Shown here one piece after another: positions 18,681 through 33,619 of a stretch of DNA of 64,000 nt. The number at the start of each line of letters is the position of its first letter. The first letter of the stretch is position 1. The stretch lies in NCBI GenBank assembly GCA_965201135.1, contig OZ241751.1, positions 1,460,248 to 1,524,247 of the forward strand. Reading direction: 5' to 3'. Source of the DNA: Dehalococcoidia bacterium (GTDB lineage: Bacteria > Chloroflexota > Dehalococcoidia > Lucifugimonadales > Australimonadaceae). A model generated the notes under the pieces. It saw only the letters and a program-made list of their open reading frames with translations, was not told where the DNA came from and did not search any database. A program made the position numbers and the translations under genes.

Positions 18681-20690
18681 TTACGCATTGCCGAACGTCG
18701 CTTCCCATAATTCGCCTTCGCCGGGGGTGAATTGTCCTGTCCTAATCCCGGCGATTGGGTAATCGGGCAGCGGAACGCGCGCCGCGCACATGCCGTCAAC
18801 GGAGGCGTCCCACCAAGCGAGGTGGAAATCCATGTTGTCAAAGCCATGCTCCTTGCGCCGTGCAGGCAAGTCGTCCGCCCGTTCGGGGAAAATGTGCAGG
18901 AAGAACCTCGGCTCGAGATCGGGGTCGCACCTCTCCTCTTTCACATAGACCAACGCTTCCTCGCCGATGTAGACGTCGTAGGCCCCGCGGGCGGCGGGCG
19001 TTCCTGAAGAGACGACGGAGTTGAGCCACGCGCGCTGAACGTCCGATGGATGCGCTCCTTTTTCGTAGAGGAACACGAATTCGTTTTCCGGCGTGGCGAG
19101 AGGAGACACGGCGTCGCGGGCATGAGGGATGAGCGCGAAGTCGTATCGAGCGGGCAATCCATCCTCTAAGTAGCGGATGCGGCTTCCCGCGAGAAGAAGG
19201 TATAACGCGCTGTGCTCTCCGTAGAGATCGAAATTCTTCCTCCTTGGATGAGCAATGAGCACGTTCTTCCCTTGAGTCGCTTTGCGAACGCTCGCCAGGT
19301 CGGAGAAGGCCGCTTCTCTGCGATCCGCCGTCCTTTCGTCAACACTCAACGCCATTAATTGGCCCGCGGAGAGCGCGAAAGCCGCCAGGGCAACGGCGGC
19401 GGCGACCGGCAGGAGGGGCGCGGCTCTCGACCGGCTCGCCCGCAAGAGAAGCAGGGTCACCAGCGTCAGCGGAACGCCGACGTAGAAGATCGCCATATAT
19501 TCGTGGGGCGGGTAGGAGACATAGTTGCGCGCCAGCAGCGCCCAAATGAAGCCGGACAGCGCGAGAGACGTCAGCAACATTCGGTTGCGGCGGCAACGCA
19601 ACAGCAAGGCTGCGCATAAGCCGGTCAGGAGAACGCCGACGGCTGCGTACAGGAGCGCTCGGCCGTCCGTGGACGCCCCCTCGACGGCTGGCCGCCGCGT
19701 CAGGGCGTAAGGGAGGGAGGCCGAGGCGATCCTCTGGAACTGCTGCGAAAGGAAGGGCGTCCACGCGGAGCCGCCGCCGGGAATCAACTCTTGCTCTCCG
19801 CCCAGTTTCCTCAGCATAGACTGGACGGATGGCAGTTCGGCGAAGGGCGTTTCGGCGTTCAGCGCTTGGCGCTCGCCGACGAAGTTGAACGCGAGCAGCG
19901 CGGCGCCGAACAACAAGGCGACGGCGCCCAGCAGCGAGTAGCGGCTTCTCAAGGCGGCCGCCGCGGCCCTCTTCGCCGTTTGACCGGAAGGAGCGGGGGC
20001 TCTCAATTGTTGGATGATTTCGCTTGCCAGACCCAAGACAACGAAAGGCGCCAGCAAAACATAGACTTTCCACCCTATGAGCAGAGCTACGCACGTTTTG
20101 ATCAATAGTTGCCGGAACCGCCCTTCTTGCGCGAAAATGACCATGCCGTGGAACGTCAGCATTACGGCGAACAAGTCCATCATAAACTCGACTGAAACCC
20201 AATTGCCGTAGCGCAGAATATAATACGATGAGAACGCGAACAACACGGCGGTTAGAGCGATCCATCCATTGGAGGCTATCCGCGCTATGGAGCGGTACGC
20301 CAAGAAAGCGGATAGCGCGAGAAACGCCAGCATCAGCATCCGCGCCGCGAAGACTTTCGCCAGCATGTTCTCGCCGAACGGGAGCGCGGCTAATTTAATC
20401 AACGCGAAGCCGCCGACGGGGAATCGGTTGTACGCCTCGTAGGAAGGCTCCCCGTTGTCGTCGAACGATTGGTATATGAACATTCCTGAGTAATTCCGCG
20501 GCGAGAGGTTCTCGGCGATGGCCATGTTCTTCACGGTCTCCCAATCGAGGGGCGCGTAGTAATGGGCGCGGTCGGCGTTGAGCAGAAGCGTCCACGCGAG
20601 CGCAAGCCCCAAAAGGAGCGGCGGCAAGCGAGTCGACGCGAGAACGCGCGCGGCGCGAGCAGGCGTCTTCGCGGCAAGAGCGTTGGTCAT
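18681..20690 (-). CDS. polytopic ArnT/PMT-like (GT-C) glycosyltransferase with an extracytoplasmic C-terminal domain
   Basis: 669 aa. Many TM helices over ~450 aa are followed by a soluble ~200 aa. The last ~100 aa are homologous to two repeats in the 60964-63282 protein. Several 60-nt lines are markedly AT-richer than the window average. Confidence 0.65.
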   Translation of the reverse strand: MTNALAAKTPARAARVLASTRLPPLLLGLALAWTLLLNADRAHYYAPLDWETVKNMAIAENLSPRNYSGMFIYQSFDDNGEPSYEAYNRFPVGGFALIKLAALPFGENMLAKVFAARMLMLAFLALSAFLAYRSIARIASNGWIALTAVLFAFSSYYILRYGNWVSVEFMMDLFAVMLTFHGMVIFAQEGRFRQLLIKTCVALLIGWKVYVLLAPFVVLGLASEIIQQLRAPAPSGQTAKRAAAAALRSRYSLLGAVALLFGAALLAFNFVGERQALNAETPFAELPSVQSMLRKLGGEQELIPGGGSAWTPFLSQQFQRIASASLPYALTRRPAVEGASTDGRALLYAAVGVLLTGLCAALLLRCRRNRMLLTSLALSGFIWALLARNYVSYPPHEYMAIFYVGVPLTLVTLLLLRASRSRAAPLLPVAAAVALAAFALSAGQLMALSVDERTADRREAAFSDLASVRKATQGKNVLIAHPRRKNFDLYGEHSALYLLLAGSRIRYLEDGLPARYDFALIPHARDAVSPLATPENEFVFLYEKGAHPSDVQRAWLNSVVSSGTPAARGAYDVYIGEEALVYVKEERCDPDLEPRFFLHIFPERADDLPARRKEHGFDNMDFHLAWWDASVDGMCAARVPLPDYPIAGIRTGQFTPGEGELWEATFGNA

Positions 20691-24162: not shown

Positions 24163-25797
24163 ATGGCCGACTGGCGCAACAAACTCTACTTTGGGGACAA
24201 CCTCCCCATCCTGCGCGAGCGCGTCGCGGACGAGAGCGTCGATCTGATCTACCTCGATCCGCCGTTCAACTCCAACGCGACCTACAACGTGCTCTTCCGG
24301 GAGGCGGCCGGCGAACTCTCGACGGCGCAGATCCAGGCGTTCGACGACACGTGGCATTGGACCATCGAGGCAGAACTCGCCTACGAGGAGATCGTCGCCG
24401 ACGCTCCGCAAGACGTCGTGAACCTCATCGGCGCGATGCGCGGCTTCCTGGGCCGGAACGATATGATGGCCTACCTTACGATGATGACGCCCCGCATCAT
24501 CGAACTGCGCCGCGCGCTCAAGCCGGGGGGCAGCGTCTATCTCCACTGCGACCCCACGGCCAGCCACTACCTCAAACTGCTGATGGACGCCGTGTTCGGC
24601 AAGACGCGATTCCGCAACGAAATTACGTGGAAGCGCACGAGCGCCCACAGCGACGCGCGTCGCTTCGGGCGCGTGCACGACGTCATTCTGTACTACGCGC
24701 GGGACTCGCGTCCGCTTTGGAACGCTCCGCGCCAGCCCTATGACGAAGAGTACATGAGGGACTACTACCGCCGCTCCGATGACGACGGCAGGCGATGGAT
24801 GTCCGACAACCTCAGCGCGGCCGGGCTTACGGGCGGCGGGTACGAATACGAATGGAACGGCGTGAGCCGCGTCTGGCGCGTCCCGAAAGAAACAATGGAG
24901 CGGCTCAGCAGCGAAGGCCGCCTCTTCCACACGGCCAGCGGAATGCCCCGCAGGAAGCGCTACCTCGACGAAATGCCCGGCGTTCCCCTGCAGGACGTCT
25001 GGACGGACATTCCGCCCATCGGATCCCGCGCCCGCGAGCGGCTCGGTTATCCGACGCAGAAGCCGGAGGCGCTGCTGGAGCGCGTCATTCTCTCGTCCAG
25101 CAATGAGGGCGACGTCGTCCTCGACCCCTTCTGCGGATGCGGAACCGCCATCGCCGTCGCAGAGCGCCTCAACCGCCGCTGGATCGGCGTGGACATCACC
25201 CACCTCGCCGTCTCTCTGATGAAGCACCGCCTCGCCGACTCGTTCGGCGAGCGCCTCTCGCCCTACGACGTCGTCGGCGCTCCGCAAGACGTCGCGTCCG
25301 CCCGCGCCCTAGCGTTGGCGAGCGAGCACGACGGGCGCTATCAGTTCGAGTACTGGGCGCTCGGTCTCGTGGAGGCGCGCCCCGCCCACGACCGCCGCAG
25401 AGGAGCGGACGCCGGGGTTGACGGCTACGTCAACTTTCTCGACGACGATTCGGGCAAGATCAAGCGCGTCATCGTGCAAGTGAAGAGCGGGAGGGTCGGG
25501 CGCGCCCACATTGCGACGCTGCGCGGAGATATGGAGCGGCAAGAGGCGGAGATGGGCTTGTTCATCACGCTGGAGCGTCCGACGGAGCCGATGGTCCGCG
25601 ACGCGCTCGCCGCGGGATTCTACGAGCCGCGCCACTTCCCGGGTCGCCGCTTCCCCCGCGTTCAGATACGGACGGTGGAGGAGTTGCTCGCGGGGAACGC
25701 GCCCGAAATCCCCCGGCTTGGCCTTGCCGGCGACCCCACCTTCCGCCGAGCCCCGCGCCGCGCAAGCGCTCCCGGCCCCGTCGAACCCATGCTGTGA
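24163..25797 (+). CDS. beta-class N4/N6 DNA methyltransferase fused to a C-terminal Mrr-like restriction endonuclease domain
   Basis: 544 aa. Catalytic LIYLDPPFNS precedes the SAM motif VLDPFCGCGTA, which is the beta-class order. The C-terminal ~150 aa read ..GADAGVDGYVNF..RVIVQVKSGRV..GLFITLE.., matching an Mrr/PD-QxK-type core. Confidence 0.85.
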   Translation: MADWRNKLYFGDNLPILRERVADESVDLIYLDPPFNSNATYNVLFREAAGELSTAQIQAFDDTWHWTIEAELAYEEIVADAPQDVVNLIGAMRGFLGRNDMMAYLTMMTPRIIELRRALKPGGSVYLHCDPTASHYLKLLMDAVFGKTRFRNEITWKRTSAHSDARRFGRVHDVILYYARDSRPLWNAPRQPYDEEYMRDYYRRSDDDGRRWMSDNLSAAGLTGGGYEYEWNGVSRVWRVPKETMERLSSEGRLFHTASGMPRRKRYLDEMPGVPLQDVWTDIPPIGSRARERLGYPTQKPEALLERVILSSSNEGDVVLDPFCGCGTAIAVAERLNRRWIGVDITHLAVSLMKHRLADSFGERLSPYDVVGAPQDVASARALALASEHDGRYQFEYWALGLVEARPAHDRRRGADAGVDGYVNFLDDDSGKIKRVIVQVKSGRVGRAHIATLRGDMERQEAEMGLFITLERPTEPMVRDALAAGFYEPRHFPGRRFPRVQIRTVEELLAGNAPEIPRLGLAGDPTFRRAPRRASAPGPVEPML

Positions 25798-25812: not shown

Positions 25813-27231
25813 CTACCCATCCTCCGCGAGGGGAGGCCAGCGATGCGACCACGGGCGGGCGCGCTCTATCGCGGCGGCGGCGCGCAGGACGCCCACGTCG
25901 TCATGCAGCTGCCCGACGATCTGGACGGCGAGAGGCAGTCCGTTCGAGTGAAATCCCACGGGGACGGCGGCGGCGGGGTTGTAGGCGTGGTTGAACGGCG
26001 TGTTGAAACTTTGCGGCGGGCGCGACCTGTCCGGCAGGCGGACGTCCTCTATCCGCTGCGCGGGGCCCGACTGCGGGCTGAGCAGCAGGTCGTAGTCGCG
26101 GAACCACTCCTGAACGCGGAGGGAGTAGGCGCGGTTGCGGCGGACGACGCGCCGATATTGCCACGCTTTGGCGCGCGGCCCCGCCTCGTAGACCGGACGG
26201 GCGACCTCGCTCAGGTCGTCCAGATGCTTTTCGAGGAAGCCGGGAATCATCGCCTCGGCGGCGGCGTAGTGGTCGCCGGAGTAGGCCCAAACGCCGGGCT
26301 CCAGTTCCTCCGGCTCTTCGATGGTCGGCGGATCGGCCTCCGTAACGACGCAGCCGGCGTCCTCGAAGAATCGCGCCGTCTCCCGCGTGAAGGCGACCGC
26401 CTCGGCGTCCATTGCGAAGCCGCGTCCGAAGTCGTAACTCACGGCGACGCGGAGGCCGCGCAGGTCGCCCGAGGCGAACGCGAAGTAATCGGCGACGGGC
26501 GGCAGGTTGGAGTCGGCGTCGCGGGGGTCCGCGCCGGCGAGCGCATTGAGGACGAGGGCGGCGTCGCGGACGGTTCGCGTGAGCGGGCCGTTGTGGGAGC
26601 GGCCGGGAGCGGCGCGCCACGTTTGGACGGACGGCATGCGCTGGTAGGTCGGCTTGAGGCCAAACACTCCGTTGATCGCGGCGGGCATCCGCACGGAGCC
26701 GCCGGAGTCCGTTCCGATTGCGAGGGGGCCAAGTCCAGCGGCGACCTGCGCTCCGGCGCCCCCGCTGGAGCCGCCGCAGGTATGCTCCGGGCTCCACGGG
26801 TTGCGCCCCGGCGGGCTGAGGCGGTTGTCGACCGCGCCGTGCAGGGCGAACTCCGGCAGGTTCGTTTTGCCGATGAGAACGCCGCCCTCGCGCCGGACGC
26901 GCCGCGCGATTTCGGAGTCCGGCTGGCGGTTGTCCGCGAACGGCAGCGAGCCGTAGGTGGTGGGGAGCCCCGCCATCTCGATGCTGTCTTTCAGCGAGAT
27001 CGGGACGCCGCAGAGCAGGCCGCGCTCGCCGGATCCGAGCCACGCGGCTTCCGCCGCCTGCGCCGCCCGCTCCGCGCCGTCCGGGTTGAGCGCGAGGAAC
27101 GCGCTCAACGTCGGATCGAGGCGCTCGACGCGCTCGAAGACCTCTCGAACGACCTCTACGGGCGAGAAGTCGCGCCGCCGATAGCCGTCCAGCAGTTCGA
27201 CGGCGGAGAGCCGCCAGAAGCCGCCGCTCAC
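25813..27231 (-). CDS. amidase (amidase-signature family)
   Basis: GTG at 27231 overlaps the upstream TGA (GTGA). The AS signature GGSSGGAGAQVAAGLGPLAIGTDSGGSVRMPAA and ..PISLKDS.. are present. The N-terminal 140 codons of the 615-aa track ORF are out-of-frame overlap. Confidence 0.9.
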   Translation of the reverse strand: MSGGFWRLSAVELLDGYRRRDFSPVEVVREVFERVERLDPTLSAFLALNPDGAERAAQAAEAAWLGSGERGLLCGVPISLKDSIEMAGLPTTYGSLPFADNRQPDSEIARRVRREGGVLIGKTNLPEFALHGAVDNRLSPPGRNPWSPEHTCGGSSGGAGAQVAAGLGPLAIGTDSGGSVRMPAAINGVFGLKPTYQRMPSVQTWRAAPGRSHNGPLTRTVRDAALVLNALAGADPRDADSNLPPVADYFAFASGDLRGLRVAVSYDFGRGFAMDAEAVAFTRETARFFEDAGCVVTEADPPTIEEPEELEPGVWAYSGDHYAAAEAMIPGFLEKHLDDLSEVARPVYEAGPRAKAWQYRRVVRRNRAYSLRVQEWFRDYDLLLSPQSGPAQRIEDVRLPDRSRPPQSFNTPFNHAYNPAAAVPVGFHSNGLPLAVQIVGQLHDDVGVLRAAAAIERARPWSHRWPPLAEDG

Positions 27232-27791
27232 GACGCCGCCAGTTGCTCTTTGAGGAGCGCGGTCTGCTTCGCCATCGGCACGCCCGCCCAGAGCGGCTCG
27301 CGGTCTTCGCGCTCGATGACGAGTTCGATGAGCGTCGGCCCAGGCGCCGCCCATATCTCCGGAAGGCGCTCGATGAGGTCTTCCGCCTTCTCGACGCGGA
27401 GCGCGTTCGCGTAGCCCGCCGCTTTGGCGAGCGCGACCCAGTCGAACCGCCCCGCCGCGGGCAGTTGCTGGTTGCCGGTGCTCTGATGCAGGCCGTTGGC
27501 GAACACGAAGTGCCGGAAGTTCTCCGGCGCCTGTCCGGCGATGGTGACGAGCGAGCCGAGTTGCATCAGCAAACTGCCGTCGCCGTCCAGAACCATCACG
27601 TTTTTGTCGGGGCGCGCCAGCGCGAGCCCGAGCCCGATGGACGACGCGCTGCCCATGCACTGCGAGGCGTCAATGTGCAGCGTCTCGCCCTGCCCGGCCT
27701 GGTGCCACGGATGCACCGATTGCATCGTGACGACGGACACGGCGCCGCCGCGCCCCTCCGCGAGAATTGCTATGGCTTCGTTGCGCTGCAT
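27228..27791 (-). CDS. TPP-dependent decarboxylase, beta (pyrophosphate-binding) subunit; sulfopyruvate/phosphonopyruvate decarboxylase-like
   Basis: 187 aa. TPP motif VLDGDGSLLMQLGSL..FANGLHQSTG (GDG-X-N). Confidence 0.8.
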   Translation of the reverse strand: MQRNEAIAILAEGRGGAVSVVTMQSVHPWHQAGQGETLHIDASQCMGSASSIGLGLALARPDKNVMVLDGDGSLLMQLGSLVTIAGQAPENFRHFVFANGLHQSTGNQQLPAAGRFDWVALAKAAGYANALRVEKAEDLIERLPEIWAAPGPTLIELVIEREDREPLWAGVPMAKQTALLKEQLAAS

Positions 27792-27794
27792 TGG

Positions 27795-28820
27795 CTAGCC
27801 TGCCCTCTGGAGCTCTTGTCCGTTAGCCTTGGCGGGCGGCAACGCGGACTCAGGGAAGTCCTGGTCTATCCGCTCGACCAAAGCCAACGCCCTCTCCGCC
27901 ACCCGCCTAGCGGCGTCACGCACGCGGAACTGGTAACTTGCGGCAGCGGAAATGTCGTGCACCAGCCCTGTGTGCACTACGACCTCCCAACCCTGCTCCC
28001 ACTTTACGCAAGCGGACAAAAACTCTTCAACGCGCTCGTCCAGCGGAGGTTCGTGTCCTTTCTGGTAAGGAGTCCGAGTGTACTGTCGCCACCCTCCTAC
28101 TCTGGCGTGCTCGAAAGCCTGAGCAAGGCTTGCCTCTTGATGCTCGAGGAGATAGGGCACCATCTCGGTGGAGAAGAAACGCCCATTTATCTTGTTGGCC
28201 ACAATGAATTCGGCTGCGGGGGCTTGGAGGTCAGCCGGCAACCGCCCAACCGATTGAGCAATCGTGAAATTAATCGCGCCCGATTCCAACATAACCCGCA
28301 CTGTCGGTTTGAGTTGCAACACGCGAACCAACTGCGGCCACTCTTGCCCCCCCCCAAGCCTTTCCCGGTAGTCATCCCACAACTCGGGGCGCTCTATGAG
28401 GCCGAGTTGGCCGAGAGCCTTCTCTAGCCCCGCTATCTTCGTGTTTGGGCTCAGCGACCTCGTCTGCATGACCCTGCTGACTTTCTTGTACAGCAGGTCT
28501 TCGTCCGACGGGCGAGAGATAACCTTAGCCCTGAGCGCAGGGATCCCGACCAACTGGGCCGCGCGCCAGCGCCGCTCTCCATCGTGGAGATCGAAGAAGC
28601 CTGCCCAGCCGCCATCGTCTCTCAGCAACGGGAAGACCGTTATCTCGTCGAACTGTCCCAACAGTTCGATGTTTTTGCCCAGGTCCATCAAGTCCGCCTC
28701 GTCGAACTCCTGGCGAAGGTTCTCCGGGTCAGGCTTGATGAGCTGAACGGGCATGTCAACGACGAGCCCGTACCAGGAAGATACGGGCGCCAACGCCAAG
28801 TGGTCCATGGTCGTAGTCAT
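27795..28820 (-). CDS. ParB/Srx-domain protein with a canonical arginine patch and a unique C-terminus
   Basis: 341 aa. Reads ..VQLIKPDPENLRQEFDEADLMDLGKNIELLGQFDEITVF..DLHDGERRWRAAQLVGIPALRAKVI.., then QTRSLSPNTKIAGLEKAL and an HTH-like INFTIAQSVGRL. The ATG overlaps the upstream stop (ATGA at 28817-28820). The stop lies 3 nt before the ATG of the beta subunit. Confidence 0.8.
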   Translation of the reverse strand: MTTTMDHLALAPVSSWYGLVVDMPVQLIKPDPENLRQEFDEADLMDLGKNIELLGQFDEITVFPLLRDDGGWAGFFDLHDGERRWRAAQLVGIPALRAKVISRPSDEDLLYKKVSRVMQTRSLSPNTKIAGLEKALGQLGLIERPELWDDYRERLGGGQEWPQLVRVLQLKPTVRVMLESGAINFTIAQSVGRLPADLQAPAAEFIVANKINGRFFSTEMVPYLLEHQEASLAQAFEHARVGGWRQYTRTPYQKGHEPPLDERVEEFLSACVKWEQGWEVVVHTGLVHDISAAASYQFRVRDAARRVAERALALVERIDQDFPESALPPAKANGQELQRAG

Positions 28821-29608
28821 GGCCTTCTCCCCATACTGCCAAGCCTGTCCGCGGCATCTTGCAACGCTAGTTCCTGGTAATTGCGCGGTAAGCCTGTCTG
28901 GAGCATAACCCAGTTCATCAGCTCACGGCTCACACGCGCCTGAGCTTGGCGCAAACGCCTCTGGTACCGCCTGATCTCTCTTGCGGTTTGCTGGAAGCTC
29001 AGCGTGAGGTTTCCGAACGTTTGCTCGGGCAATTGCGGCAGTATCTCTTGGATGTCGGCATATGGGATTCCGTGAAGACCCGTCAGGGTCTCTCCGAGGG
29101 ACTCATCCTCGGCCATACTGTCATGGATTGCCTGAAGCGTTCGGTAGTCGCCTCTTTGGAGCGCTTGGCGTTGCTCTTCGATGTTTGAGGCAGCCCGGAT
29201 GGACCTAGCGGTATTCCTCCGCGTAGACAGGTCCTTGTCCCTAGCGCGCTGCATAGGCGCCAAGTCGCCTGCGAGCAGGGGAACGGTCTGAGCCTCGCCA
29301 GTCTGAGGGTTGGTCCAGACGTACCACAGCGCCTTGTAGAGGAATATCCGGCCAAACGGCACAGCGTTGAAGGTGAAGTAGCCAGGCGCCCTGGCCTTGA
29401 GTTTGTCTCTCCCGATGGCCTGAGCCCTCCTGAAGCGGCGCTCATAGGACTCGTAGGGATACGCCGGGGCGCCGACATCATAGCCCAACGCCACTTCGAT
29501 CACTCGCTCAATCCGAACGCCGTAGGTGTTCGCGGCAAGGTATATGCCGATCTGGAGGTTGTCGCGCTGTTCTTCGACGCTTGGGGTTCTCGCAACCATA
29601 CTAACCAC
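28817..29608 (-). CDS. hypothetical protein with no recognisable motif; partner of the ParB-like gene
   Basis: Clean 263-aa ORF with protein-like composition, an alpha/beta-looking N-terminal half and a helical, Arg/Gln-rich C-terminal half (..REIRRYQRRLRQAQARVSRE..). It starts 13 nt after the alpha-subunit stop. Confidence 0.7.
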   Translation of the reverse strand: MVSMVARTPSVEEQRDNLQIGIYLAANTYGVRIERVIEVALGYDVGAPAYPYESYERRFRRAQAIGRDKLKARAPGYFTFNAVPFGRIFLYKALWYVWTNPQTGEAQTVPLLAGDLAPMQRARDKDLSTRRNTARSIRAASNIEEQRQALQRGDYRTLQAIHDSMAEDESLGETLTGLHGIPYADIQEILPQLPEQTFGNLTLSFQQTAREIRRYQRRLRQAQARVSRELMNWVMLQTGLPRNYQELALQDAADRLGSMGRRP

Positions 29609-29621
29609 CCTGCTCCATATC

Positions 29622-30170
29622 TTACAATGTCGGGGCGCCGACGATCAAGGCGGCGGGGCCCATCGTCTCGTGGGCGCGGTCGTAGGCGGCCCGGATATTG
29701 CCGACGTCCTCCGGGCCCTCCAGCCGGTAGTGGGGAACGCCCCAGACGTCCAGCGTCGGCTCCACCATACGCACGGCGCGCGACTTGCTCTCCTCTATGG
29801 GAAGCATGGGGTCACGCTGGTACTGTCCCACGAAGATGAGCGTCGGCACGCGGGCGTCCAGCGGAATCGCCTTGATCGTGTTGATGGAGGCGAATATCCC
29901 GTTGTTCTGGATGAGGAGCATCGGGTTCTTGCCGCCGACGTAGAGGCCCGCGTTGATCCCCATCGCCTCGTCCTCCGTGCACGCCGTGACGAAGCGGATC
30001 GCGGGGTCGTCCTGCAGGAGGGCGATGAGCGTCTTCTGATACGAGTCGGGGATGCAGACGACGTGGTCGATTCCCAACGCGCGCAACTCCGCCGCGATGA
30101 CGGACGCCTCAACGCCCCGCGCGACCGGCTCGGCCGGAGCCGCTTCCGCCGGAGTCGTTCCCGTAGTCAT
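29622..30170 (-). CDS. TPP-dependent decarboxylase, alpha (pyrimidine-binding) subunit; sulfopyruvate/phosphonopyruvate decarboxylase-like
   Basis: ATG at 30170 (MTTGTTPAEA..). Reads ..LGIDHVVCIPDSYQKTL..ACTEDEAMGINAGLYVGG..LLIQNNG.., the PYR domain with the catalytic Glu. The rest of the 596-aa track ORF is out-of-frame overlap with the RidA-like gene. Confidence 0.8.
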   Translation of the reverse strand: MTTGTTPAEAAPAEPVARGVEASVIAAELRALGIDHVVCIPDSYQKTLIALLQDDPAIRFVTACTEDEAMGINAGLYVGGKNPMLLIQNNGIFASINTIKAIPLDARVPTLIFVGQYQRDPMLPIEESKSRAVRMVEPTLDVWGVPHYRLEGPEDVGNIRAAYDRAHETMGPAALIVGAPTL

Positions 30171-32559: not shown

Positions 32560-32632
32560 AATGGCTTCCTTCCCCCCGCGCGCCGCTAGCCCGCGCGGGA
32601 CATGGGAATCGTAGGATTGATTCGCCTCAGTG

Positions 32633-33619
32633 TCAAGGACGGGGCAGGCGCTCGGCCGACCGCGCGTCGTCCTCGCTTCGGCGGCGCGCCTCTTGCGGGG
32701 ACGGATGGCGCAGATAGGCCATCCGCTTCAACTCGCGCCTCCCCCGATTCACGCTGTCGAGGATGACGCCCGAGAGAAAACTCCCCAGCGCGGCGAGCCC
32801 TAGCCCTACGCATAAGACGGCGGTGGGAAGGCGGGGGACCAAGCCCGTTTCCCAAAACGTCGAGAGAAGGGGGATGCCCAAGCCCACTGCGGCCAAACCC
32901 AGCAGCGCGCTCGTGAACGTGAAGAAGCGAAACGGGTGGAACTCCTTGAGCAGCAACCCGATGGTGAAGAGAGCGCGCGCGCCGTCGTGGAACGTCCTGA
33001 GTTTGCTGAGGCTTCCCTCCGGCCTCTCGACGTACTTCGTCGGCGTCTCGCCGGCGGGCAAGCGCAGATGGGCGCAATGCGCCGCCAATTCGGGCTCGAT
33101 CTCGAAATGCTGCGACGTTGCGGGGAACGACTTGACGAACCGCCGCGACATGACGCGGTAGCCGGAACTGATGTCCGTGAAATTCCCGCCGAACTGCGCG
33201 TTGATCAACCAGTTCAGCAACGCGTTGCCGAGCCGGTGCCCCCGCCTGTAGGCGTTCCGCCCGTCCGCGACGCGCGCTCCGACGACCATATCGAGGTTCT
33301 CGGAGACGAGCTGCTCGACCATAGCGGGGGCCGCCTCCGCCTCGTAAGTGCCGTCGCCGTCCACGAGCACGTAGACGTCCGCCTCGACGTCGGCGAACAT
33401 TCGGCGGACGACGTTGCCTTTGCCTGCGGCGGGCTCGGACCGGACTATCGCGCCGGCGGCGCGGGCTTCGTCCGCGGTGCGGTCGGTGGACGCGTTGTCG
33501 TAGACGTAGAAGAGCGCGTCCGGGAGCGCGTTCCGAAAAGACTCGACGACTCCCGCAATCGTCTTCTCCTCGTTCCGGCAGGGCGCGAGCACGGCGATGG
33601 CCAACGGATTGGTCGTCAT
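32633..33619 (-). CDS. family 2 glycosyltransferase (polyprenyl-phosphate sugar synthase-like, with C-terminal TM helices)
   Basis: MTTNPLAIAVLAPCRNEE..YVYDNASTDRT..VLVDGDGTY (DXD), then two hydrophobic helices. The ATG at 33619 overlaps the upstream TGA (ATGA). The track start at 33640 is 7 codons upstream. Confidence 0.85.
   Translation of the reverse strand: MTTNPLAIAVLAPCRNEEKTIAGVVESFRNALPDALFYVYDNASTDRTADEARAAGAIVRSEPAAGKGNVVRRMFADVEADVYVLVDGDGTYEAEAAPAMVEQLVSENLDMVVGARVADGRNAYRRGHRLGNALLNWLINAQFGGNFTDISSGYRVMSRRFVKSFPATSQHFEIEPELAAHCAHLRLPAGETPTKYVERPEGSLSKLRTFHDGARALFTIGLLLKEFHPFRFFTFTSALLGLAAVGLGIPLLSTFWETGLVPRLPTAVLCVGLGLAALGSFLSGVILDSVNRGRRELKRMAYLRHPSPQEARRRSEDDARSAERLPRP

Follow-up and report, generated by a model that had tools for sequence, protein, structure and literature searches.

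A ParB-like gene pair lodged between the two subunit genes of a thiamine pyrophosphate decarboxylase in Dehalococcoidia is a candidate minimal mobile element

A stretch of 64,000 nucleotides from a Dehalococcoidia bacterium (contig OZ241751.1, positions 1,460,248 to 1,524,247; hereafter the window) carries two genes between those for the alpha (TPP_N) and beta (TPP_C) halves of a thiamine pyrophosphate (TPP) decarboxylase. The first, p263, was initially called as a 263-amino acid (aa) product, and the second encodes a 341-aa ParB-like protein. The best reading of the data is that this pair was repeatedly and independently inserted at the same TPP_N/TPP_C spot in Chloroflexota. The interpretation that we prefer, to which we assign about an even chance of being correct, is that the pair is a minimal autonomous and horizontally mobile element of ~1.8 kb, made up of the two genes and a Shine-Dalgarno region that belongs to the element, and that its insertion is site-specific and transposition-like. 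By sequence comparison, the pair was shown to be mobile, to be site-specific, and to duplicate its target, and both proteins were shown to be under purifying selection. The core features of the window are:

29622..30170, minus strand: TPP_N gene, the TPP decarboxylase alpha half, ComD / sulfopyruvate-decarboxylase-alpha-like (PF02776; TIGR03845 below cutoff); left insertion flank
29629..29642, minus strand: near-palindrome GTCGGCGCCCCGAC in the last TPP_N codons, a candidate recognition site (from junction alignments)
29601..29621, minus strand: putative decayed left copy of the spacer and TPP_C 5' end (from its position and the relatives)
28817-29599 (ATG) or 28817-29608 (GTG of the initial annotation), minus strand: p263 open reading frame (ORF), no family match
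27795-28820, minus strand: ParB-like gene, 341 aa (PF02195)
27775..27794, minus strand: right copy of the duplicated target, comprising the 3-nt spacer CCA and the first 17 nt of TPP_C with its functional start (from alignments of occupied and empty junctions)
27228..27791, minus strand: TPP_C gene, the TPP decarboxylase beta half, ComE / phosphonopyruvate-decarboxylase-like (PF02775; TIGR03846 and TIGR03297 below cutoff); right flank, intact

The ORF list and a reading of the junctions bore out the ORFs, gene order, boundaries, and translational coupling given in the initial annotation of this DNA. The TPP_N stop codon TAA lies at 29624-29622, the TGA of p263 and the ATG of the ParB-like gene overlap as ATGA at 28820-28817, and the ParB-like stop codon TAG (27797-27795) is followed by CCA and then by the TPP_C ATG at 27791. 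Since TPP_N homologues are 173-174 aa long, the real TPP_N start may lie ~9-13 codons downstream of 30170. The start of p263 had been placed at GTG 29608 (263 aa); it is probably ATG 29599 instead (MVARTPSVEEQRDNL), giving a product of 260 aa that matches the 257-260-aa homologues.

Orthologous operons were collected through their 391-aa RidA protein. At the empty sites of loci L042, L043-45, and L046, TPP_C follows TPP_N after 1-17 nt and the operons are otherwise syntenic. Related operons thus do not all have the pair at this position, and the earlier proposal that the alpha and beta genes are normally contiguous and that the pair is foreign to the operon was borne out. Four operon clades were defined by the flank proteins:

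Clade A: occupied in the window, L004, and L001; no empty sister sampled
Clade B: occupied in L002/3; empty sister L042, flank proteins 96% identical
Clade C: occupied in L077; empty sister L043, flank proteins 90% identical
Clade D: occupied in L075/76; empty sister L046, flank proteins 97% identical

The flanks of clade D are 68% identical to those of all other clades. No drop in identity was detected beside the junction between occupied loci and their empty sisters, similarity being equal right up to the junction, and no co-conversion tract was present. This indicates that the element reached the site without donor flanks and rules out its import together with such flanks by homologous recombination.

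In the occupied clades B, C, and D, the TPP_N stop codon is followed by a copy of the clade's own spacer and of the first 14-19 nt of its own TPP_C, then by 3-11 nt resembling the Shine-Dalgarno region of the element, and then by the ATG of p263. The left junctions and duplications are:

Clade B: left junction TAG CC ATGGAACGCAACGAGGCGA / GTAATG; duplication AGCCATGGAACGCAACGA[G/A]GCGA
Clade C: left junction TGA TCAT ATGCACCGCGACGAGG / AGGTGATCGATG; duplication CATATGCACCGCGACGA[G/C]G
Clade D: left junction TAG CAGGCATCGGAGGGACC TTGGAGCGCCAAGAAGC / TAGCAATG; duplication TGGAGCGCCAAGAAGC

When compared with the clade's own TPP_C start, the left and right copies agree at 22/23 nt in clade B, 18/19 nt in clade C, and 16/16 nt in clade D. 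The left copies follow the amino-acid-changing TPP_C differences between these three clades and match the clade's own empty sister. In clades B and D, for which a close empty sister is available (96-97%), the left copy carries the state of the empty allele. The left copy looks like a target duplication made from recipient sequence. The initial annotation had found no flanking direct repeats; this holds for the window, where the repeat has decayed, but not for its relatives, where repeats of 16-23 nt occur at the same junctions.

In the window and L001, the left copy occupies the same position as in the relatives, and only about half of its bases match the TPP_C start. The 13-nt stretch 29621-29609 of the window, previously described as a plain spacer, is best read together with the following bases as a decayed left copy of the TPP_C 5' end; because only about half of the bases match, this reading rests on position and on the relatives. 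The putative decayed copy overlaps the element's own Shine-Dalgarno-like GGTGG, and a mini-ORF (ATG GAG CAG GGT GGT TAG, 29618-29601) ends 1 nt before the p263 ATG at 29599. In clades B, C, and D, the mini-ORF that begins at the relic start ends at a TAG 8-10 nt inside p263, and the distance from the relic start to the p263 ATG is 22, 22, and 25 nt in clades B, D, and C, respectively, always in the same frame. About 10 nt left of the insertion point, the end of TPP_N (..VGAPT) contains a GC-rich and weakly conserved palindrome, GTCGGCGC(G/C)CCGAC, which is perfect over 14-16 nt in L001, L046, and L075. It is poor in L002/L042, yet that lineage was invaded, and its role as a recognition site is speculative.

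The composition of the pair also differs from that of its surroundings. Its GC content is 0.595 against a window mean of 0.677 (z = -3.3), the lowest of any 1.8-kb stretch in the 64 kb, and its GC content at third codon positions (GC3) is 0.70/0.73 against 0.86-0.93 in the neighbouring genes; the break that had been estimated from hand counts is real and stronger than those counts implied. The pair GC3 is 0.51-0.59 in L002 and L075, in which the duplication is best kept, and 0.65-0.73 in clade A, in which the left copy has decayed, a pattern that fits insertion age. It stays 0.2-0.4 below that of the host despite saturated synonymous sites. The copy in the window appears to be an old, fixed, and probably immobilised insertion: the left duplicate is degraded, GC3 has moved part of the way towards that of the host, and no empty locus was sampled in its clade.

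Divergence of the pair does not track that of the flanks. The ParB-like proteins of clades B and D are 81% identical vs 68% for the flanks, and those of clades A and B 76% vs 85%. Pair distances are flat (19-27%) over flank distances of 14-32%. Nonsynonymous divergence (dN) of the pair is 0.16-0.22 for A-B and 0.17-0.20 for A-D, while that of the flanks is 0.07-0.10 and 0.18-0.29, respectively. Clade D sits on a long branch in the flank tree; the pair tree is star-like, grouping (B,D) at 63-80% support. Within clade A, the window and L001 share 83% identity in the pair and 93% in the flanks, and the window and L004 share 99% and 97.5%, respectively. The ratio of nonsynonymous to synonymous divergence (dN/dS) is 0.16 for p263 and 0.10 for the ParB-like gene, and both proteins are under purifying selection, as are the flank genes, both of which the insertion leaves intact (0.05-0.17; TPP_C, 0.16-0.17). 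Occupied and empty alleles, duplications specific to each recipient, and the disagreement between pair and flank histories support the earlier suggestion of a selfish, site-specific mobile unit.

Decay of the pair was also observed. In the closest relatives of the window, L004 (9594 region) and L005, p263 is broken into ORFs of 171 and 99 aa by a frameshift due to a 1-nt deletion (a T in GACCTGTCTAC); the deletion is seen in two independent assemblies, and the ParB-like gene there is intact and 99% identical. This deletion looks like the recent inactivation of one element gene. In L034 (8565-10060), the ParB-like gene is split by an insert of ~1.5 kb with a 485-aa ORF on the opposite strand, which probably encodes an IS66-like transposase, a call made by reading the sequence rather than by a domain search. 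Decay of this kind is as expected of a selfish element.

To place the pair in a wider context, species-representative genomes and JGI metagenomes were scanned, which gave 30 and 28 loci, respectively, and further loci came from twelve context look-ups. The ParB-like protein has >600 homologues, the best 120 of which all share 59% identity or more with it along their whole length; the few with a source name are Chloroflexota/Dehalococcoidia, and nearly all genome loci are Dehalococcoidia metagenome-assembled genomes. The 80 homologues of p263 lie on the same contigs as ParB-like homologues. In all of the ~60 loci where the contig permits the comparison, p263 directly precedes the ParB-like gene, with both genes on one strand and in the same order, and all-against-all clustering of the flanking ORFs of these loci revealed no other conserved neighbour. 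The pair lies between the TPP halves in the window, L001, L002/3, L004/5, L047, L075/76, and L077 and in no other locus. Where the ParB-like protein is at least 72% identical to that of the window, the pair lies at the TPP junction (8/8 distinct loci), and where the identity is 69% or less it never does (0/~50); the target site correlates with the element lineage. In nearly every locus, the GC content of the pair is 8-18 points lower than that of its flanks. The defence-pair and CTP-switch-regulator roles suggested in the initial annotation are possible functions of the two proteins, but a regulator specific for this operon is unlikely, since the same pair occurs in many unrelated contexts.

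A second example of a pair lodged within a same-strand gene cluster is L039 (=L015; 6174-12500), where it lies amid paralogous genes in the order DHDPS, pair, DHDPS, DHDPS, RidA, RidA and is bracketed by a 39-nt repeat holding the palindrome GCCTTGAGTATAATTGCTCAAGGC. In the pair flanks of L002, L004, and L036-L040, toxin-antitoxin genes (HicAB, PIN/Arc, HigB/HTH, and ParD/PIN), a ThsB-like TIR protein, and GmrSD were found within a few kb in several genomes, which suggests that the pair often lands in variable or defence-island regions.

Another, lower-GC group of elements (L049, L050, L053, L054, L062, and others) is 88-95% identical in DNA. Similarity within it ends 43-55 nt upstream of p263 and 15-18 nt past the ParB-like stop codon, and the flanks beyond are unrelated. 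Every locus was scanned for terminal inverted repeats, and only L053 and L054 stood out, with a 19-nt terminal inverted repeat whose left arm is GTGCAAGACTTATGTTAAC and whose right arm, GTTAACRTAAWTYCTGCAC, overlaps the ParB-like stop codon:

L053, 5091-5109 and 7020-7038, inverted around the pair: 19-nt motif GTGCAAGACTTATGTTAAC
L054, 112-130 and 2098-2116, inverted around the pair: 19-nt motif GTGCAAGACTTATGTTAAC

Locus-specific, hairpin-like direct repeats of ~20-22 nt directly abut both arms in these two loci. Together with the TPP-site loci, duplications of ~20 ± 3 bp accompany five apparently independent insertions in two subfamilies. Longer direct repeats bracket the pair in L015 (39 nt), L006 (64 nt), L007 (77 nt), L021 (116 nt), and L016 (704 nt), and most older-looking loci have no bracketing repeat. 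The repeat in L016 (6495-7198 and 9230-9933) is a 704-nt direct duplication with 96.3% identity that spans the 3' part of a PspA-like gene and a small downstream gene; p263 appears frameshifted in this locus. It suggests a recombination-type insertion or a variable stagger. Over all loci, no conserved non-coding ends were found beyond the Shine-Dalgarno region. A close variant of the 19-nt motif, GTGCAAGACCTATGGTAAC, occurs in direct orientation 42 nt downstream of the ParB-like gene, before a 94-aa ORF, in L010 (9086-9104) and L011 (9087-9105).

The ParB-like protein is an orphan ParB-family protein with a ParB/Noc/KorB fold. It matches PF02195 at 3.8e-7, and its HDGERRWRAA segment (Box II, the GERRxRA arginine patch) is invariant in 27 homologues; HTH_ParB was found in 25/27 family members. 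Its sequence profile matches Spo0J/ParB/Noc across residues 6-215, and its best Foldseek matches are Noc, ParB, Spo0J, and KorB (E value, 1e-10 to 1e-6), with sulfiredoxin (Srx) matching the N-terminal domain only. The protein consists of a ParB_N nucleoside triphosphate (NTP)-binding domain, a ParB-type helix-turn-helix (HTH), extra helices, and a C-terminal helical hairpin. The ~130-aa C-terminus, first thought to be unique, is this hairpin, which is conserved across the family. As had been noted, ParA is missing: no ParA gene was found in the window operon or in any gene-called locus. The ParA-binding motif has been defined as (L/F/I)G(K/R)G(L/F/I) (PMC12704722), and none was present in the N-terminal 25 residues of the alignment.

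The ParB-like protein has an invariant Asn at the position of the Box I Gln, and its Box III reads VMQTR, a departure from ENxQR; Box II is intact. The protein may act as a switch driven by CTP or another NTP, and it has been reported that the nucleotide specificity of ParB-fold proteins is not predictable from sequence (PMC12704722). Neither gene showed an outlier of synonymous conservation that would point to an embedded cis-site such as parS or ori (maximum 0.66 vs mean 0.47-0.50). No parS-like conserved site was found within the genes, no upstream DNA is kept beyond the Shine-Dalgarno region, and the 19-nt end motif is confined to one subfamily.

As the initial annotation had stated, the 263-aa protein contains no recognised motif: it had no match in Pfam, NCBIfam, PHROGs, or PADLOC, and it belongs to no metabolic family. 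An exhaustive hidden Markov model search among 1.84 billion representatives recovered only 29 clusters at 50% identity, all of the same family. The AlphaFold2 model of p263 (pLDDT, 80.8) has a confident N-terminal domain of three helices and three strands followed by long C-terminal helices; residues ~11-110 are predicted to be winged-helix-like and the C-terminal part helical. Foldseek returned no significant relatives in PDB or BFVD. A profile search against PDB gave noise only, and Pfam searches at E<5 over 49 family members gave scattered single matches.

The genes of the window operon were checked with Pfam and NCBIfam. On the minus strand their order is Amidohydro_2, RidA-family, TPP_enzyme_N, the 263-aa ORF, the 341-aa ParB_N protein, TPP_enzyme_C, and Amidase. 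The features outside the core are:

32608..32636, minus strand: sigma-70-like promoter match upstream of the amidohydrolase gene, the sole one in 25.5-33 kb (consensus scan)
32559-31351, minus strand: Amidohydro_2 gene (Pfam/NCBIfam)
31348-30173, minus strand: RidA-family protein, 391 aa (Pfam/NCBIfam)
27231-25813, minus strand: Amidase gene, overlapping TPP_C (Pfam/NCBIfam)

No minus-strand terminator-like site was found between the promoter-like match at 32608..32636 and the pair, and this match is presumed to be the source of a transcript that reads through the cassette.

A mechanism can be proposed in which one subfamily of the element, which is specific for the TPP_N/TPP_C junction, would insert at ~ +14 to +19 of TPP_C. 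A transposition-like reaction would duplicate ~16-23 bp of the recipient, namely the end of the spacer and the start of TPP_C, restoring an intact TPP_C start behind the ParB-like stop codon and leaving a relic TPP_C start before p263. Because the duplication regenerates the TPP_C start, the operon would stay functional. At the TPP site, the cassette would lack a promoter and depend on that of the operon for its transcription. Translation of p263 would be coupled to the operon via the relic mini-ORF, with its native ribosome-binding context, and that of the ParB-like gene to p263 through the ATGA overlap, while the ParB-like stop codon, the 3-5-nt spacer, and the TPP_C start would reproduce the native coupling of TPP_N and TPP_C. 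The weakest step is the supposition that the two proteins are the element's own integration machinery. The HTH and CTP-type switch of the ParB-like protein would choose or clamp the target or the element ends, by analogy with MuB, TnsC, and IstB, and p263, with its winged-helix-like domain and long helices, would be a DNA-binding and possibly catalytic partner.

An extension of this proposal, which we regard as tentative and well short of an even chance, is that the two genes are a complete new DNA-mobility machine, in which the ParB-type NTP switch with its HTH would recognise and bracket a specific target of ~20 bp and, with the winged-helix/coiled-coil protein p263, cut the strands ~20 bp apart and insert the element. 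It is likewise possible, though doubtful, that under such a scheme the element lineages were re-targeted to an intercistronic junction, terminator-like hairpins, or the 3' ends of genes.

Several observations weigh against a mobile element that is inserted by its own proteins. In searches of Pfam (also at E<5), PADLOC, PHROGs, PDB sequences, and folds, neither protein showed a domain of catalytic function, whether DDE, HUH, tyrosine or serine recombinase, or nuclease. Terminal inverted repeats above controls were absent from the window and from every TPP-site locus; the scores of L053 and L054 are 34 and 29 against a control maximum of 31, which places L054 inside the control range. The 19-nt motif could be a transposon end, or an operator or ParB-binding site, and the repeats of 39-704 nt fit a recombination-type insertion better than a fixed stagger. 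The relic could stay TPP_C-like through selection for translational coupling. Bootstrap support for the incongruent topology (63-80%) is modest, so that the argument leans mainly on distances, and donors are unsampled because synonymous sites of the pair are saturated between clades. The species-representative scan found one pair copy per genome, no free circular form was found among short contigs, and p263 had no match in the phage, plasmid, and viral collections INPHARED, PLSDB, and IMG/VR. Moreover, all data are metagenome assemblies, and the evidence is wholly comparative.

The pair was compared with known systems. Restriction-modification (R-M) gene complexes were reportedly described by Nobusato in 2000 as inserted 'with long, variable target duplication'. 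R-M units without mobility genes are found as inserts with long (>30 bp) and variable target duplications, some with the duplication at the 3' end of a gene or with a GC content below the genome average, and others with imperfect inverted repeats and a short duplication (PMC2853133; Furuta, Abe & Kobayashi 2010). The pair resembles them as a small selfish unit lacking a transposase or integrase, with variable direct duplications of recipient DNA and with occupied and empty alleles in close relatives. However, the insert consists only of p263 and the ParB-like gene and has no R or M gene, a methyltransferase-nuclease fusion at 24163-25797 lying outside it. The duplication at the TPP site (~16-23 bp) is under the 30-bp criterion of that study, while repeats of 39-704 nt occur in L015, L006, L007, L021, and L016. 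In addition, insertion recurred at one nucleotide position in diverged hosts, and the site depends on the lineage of the element, which indicates sequence-specific targeting of a kind not described for R-M units.

Free-standing homing-endonuclease genes sit between conserved genes, for example mobE of T4 between nrdA and nrdB, and homing proceeds by double-strand-break repair, with co-conversion of flanks and no target duplication. The pair resembles them in its precise lodging between linked conserved genes, in its site-specific presence or absence in three lineages, and in what looks like a cycle of invasion, fixation, and decay (the L004/5 frameshift). The analogy drawn in the initial annotation was nevertheless not sustained: Pfam, PHROGs, PADLOC, and fold searches found no LAGLIDADG, GIY-YIG, HNH, His-Cys, or PD-(D/E)XK domain, co-conversion of flanks is not seen, the duplication is recipient-derived, and there are two genes, one of which encodes a ParB-type NTP switch.

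Among transposons, IS1549 and IS1634 (IS1634 family, DDE transposons) generate variable target duplications of 8-514 bp (PMC2266710). They provide a transposition precedent for unusually long, variable direct repeats, but have a large DDE transposase and inverted-repeat ends and are multicopy, whereas the pair has only the inverted repeats of one subfamily. As in classical transposons and insertion sequences, a duplication from the recipient is present (clades B, C, and D; L053/L054; and a decayed relic in the window); in contrast to them, neither protein matches a transposase even at E<5, the predicted folds are not RNase-H-like, and the pair is single copy. Mu (MuA/MuB), IS21 (IstA/IstB), and Tn7 (TnsABC+D) combine an NTP-dependent target selector (an AAA+ ATPase) with a DDE transposase and produce duplications of 4-8 bp. 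The proposed NTP switch acting as a target selector with a partner would be similar, and the single-copy, gene-sparing insertion resembles that of Tn7 at attTn7, but no homology of either pair protein to the components of these systems was found. On defining gene content, the pair does not belong to R-M units, Tn7-like elements, or IS1549/IS1634 elements.

The ParB-fold clamps (ParB/Spo0J, Noc, KorB with KorA/TrbA, VirB, and BisD) share the fold and the domain order of the ParB-like protein, with ParB_N and its GERRxRA followed by the HTH, and as with KorB and KorA, the ParB-like protein has a small partner of DNA-binding type. The pair differs from them in lacking ParA and the ParA-binding motif, in its divergent Boxes I and III, and in its family-specific C-terminal hairpin. 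Orphan proteins of the ParB-CTPase fold are frequent on mobile elements, and the survey that reports them describes no transposition-type role (PMC12704722). In the literature on ParB-like proteins with target-site duplication, nothing comparable was found, and no transposition role is described for ParB-fold proteins.

An unlikely but serious alternative is that the pair is a selfish or defence-type 'addiction' unit without a transposase of its own, which spreads by DNA uptake and host repair or recombination. It would be retained since its loss or absence is costly or because it protects against invaders, its proteins clamping, silencing, or cleaving DNA, for example, rather than taking part in integration. 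R-M units without mobility genes share this anatomy, including the long, variable target duplications (PMC2853133), and the direct repeats of the pair range from 16 to 704 nt. The pair is also AT-rich and single-copy, has no catalytic recombinase in either protein, and often neighbours toxin-antitoxin genes, GmrSD, or methyltransferase-nuclease fusions; a DNA methyltransferase fusion adjoins it in L040 and lies 2 kb away in the window. However, neither protein matches any PADLOC defence model (0 families, PADLOC 2023), and it is difficult to see how operons that share just 68% identity could have received three to four insertions at one nucleotide position unless the targeting were sequence-specific. 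The correlation of target site with element lineage, and the fairly constant duplication of ~20 bp at the TPP site and beside the L053/L054 inverted repeats, also speak against this explanation.

Rather improbable, and slightly more so than the preceding alternative, is an integrative episome that excises as a circle between the repeats and re-integrates by a single crossover, either site-specific or RecA-dependent (Campbell type), in which case the repeats would be att-like cores rather than fill-in duplications. The variable and partly very long repeats (704 nt in L016, 116 nt in L021, and 64-77 nt in L006/L007) would agree with it, as would the constant geometry of the TPP site, with 22-25 nt between the relic start and the p263 ATG in the same frame in three clades. 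The empty alleles are the exact product of repeat-by-repeat excision, and cycles of excision and re-integration within a clade would hold both copies at the clade's own sequence. A crossover between clades within a 16-19-nt core should, however, give hybrid repeats, and the copies differ at only 0-1 positions where the clade cores differ at ~4/16. Repeats of 16-23 nt are below the length of homology that RecA uses efficiently. Furthermore, there were no circular contigs among those searched, the pair has no recognisable recombinase or replication gene, and the inverted repeats of L053/L054 are left unexplained.

Vertical descent from a single ancient insertion in the ancestor of the four clades, perhaps as a domesticated operon regulator, with three precise deletions giving the empty alleles, is very improbable. 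Co-divergence of pair and flanks within clade A, purifying selection on both genes, and the co-oriented, translationally coupled arrangement within the operon would be in line with it. It was rejected on the clade-specific relics and the distances: the relic tracks clade-specific, amino-acid-changing TPP_C differences in B, C, and D, pair distances are flat across the range of flank distances, and the pair dN is equal for A-B and A-D while that of the flanks differs 2-3-fold. The low GC3 despite saturated synonymous sites and the presence of the same pair in dozens of unrelated contexts are also contrary to it.

Finally, some proteins with ParB/Srx folds are ATP-dependent enzymes, SerK and Srx among them (PMC12704722), Srx is among the fold matches of the N-terminal domain, and the pair is tightly packed in a catabolic operon, but it is scarcely credible that the ParB-like protein works as a small-molecule kinase, in the manner of SerK and SbnI, or has some other enzymatic function, with p263 as an accessory of the operon pathway, given the full ParB/Noc-type N-terminal domain and HTH architecture, the unrelated contexts, the foreign composition, and the orthologous operons that do without the pair. 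A metabolic role in the amidohydrolase-RidA-decarboxylase-amidase pathway is effectively refuted by the empty operons L042, L043-45, and L046.

If the two proteins of the preferred mobile element move it themselves, they would represent new DNA-insertion enzymology based on the ParB CTP-switch fold; until now, the only functions linked to that fold are segregation, nucleoid occlusion, and transcriptional control. In that case, a selfish element would also have settled in an essential-looking operon at no cost via a duplicated intercistronic junction. If they are moreover a complete mobility machine, they would constitute a new transposase or integrase class, with the first ParB-fold protein in transposition and an operon-friendly, site-programmable system of 1.8 kb. 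Duplication of the junction would keep the native coupling of the element's own and the downstream genes, a design principle that would be useful for synthetic operon engineering, and lineage-dependent site specificity in a two-gene package of 1.8 kb would be of interest as a compact tool for targeted insertion. Even if the pair is moved by host processes, it would extend the little-understood 'insertion with target duplication' beyond R-M genes and offer concrete, testable biology for the orphan ParB proteins of mobile elements.

Other observations concern the surroundings of the pair. Adjoining the amidase gene downstream in the window, 24163-25797 (plus strand) encodes a 544-aa protein in which an N6_N4 DNA methyltransferase is fused to a C-terminal Mrr_cat/inactive-REase-like domain; the GC content of the fusion gene is somewhat low (0.62-0.65 at the 5' end). 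The closest relative, L004, has other genes in its place, and in L040/L021 the p263-ParB pair is directly followed by a related methyltransferase (45% identity) that is fused to HNH. The link between the methyltransferase and the pair could be a coincidence, a defence-island effect, or a functional association. In L075 (3244-5629), the RidA-like gene is called as 249 aa and an opposite-strand ORF lies between it and the amidohydrolase gene, whereas the otherwise identical L076 has the full 391-aa gene; the difference is either an assembly problem or a local disruption. No tRNA is present in the window, in agreement with the initial annotation. The second-lowest-GC stretch of the window (0.609) is 18681-20690 (minus strand), which codes for a 669-aa multi-pass membrane protein.

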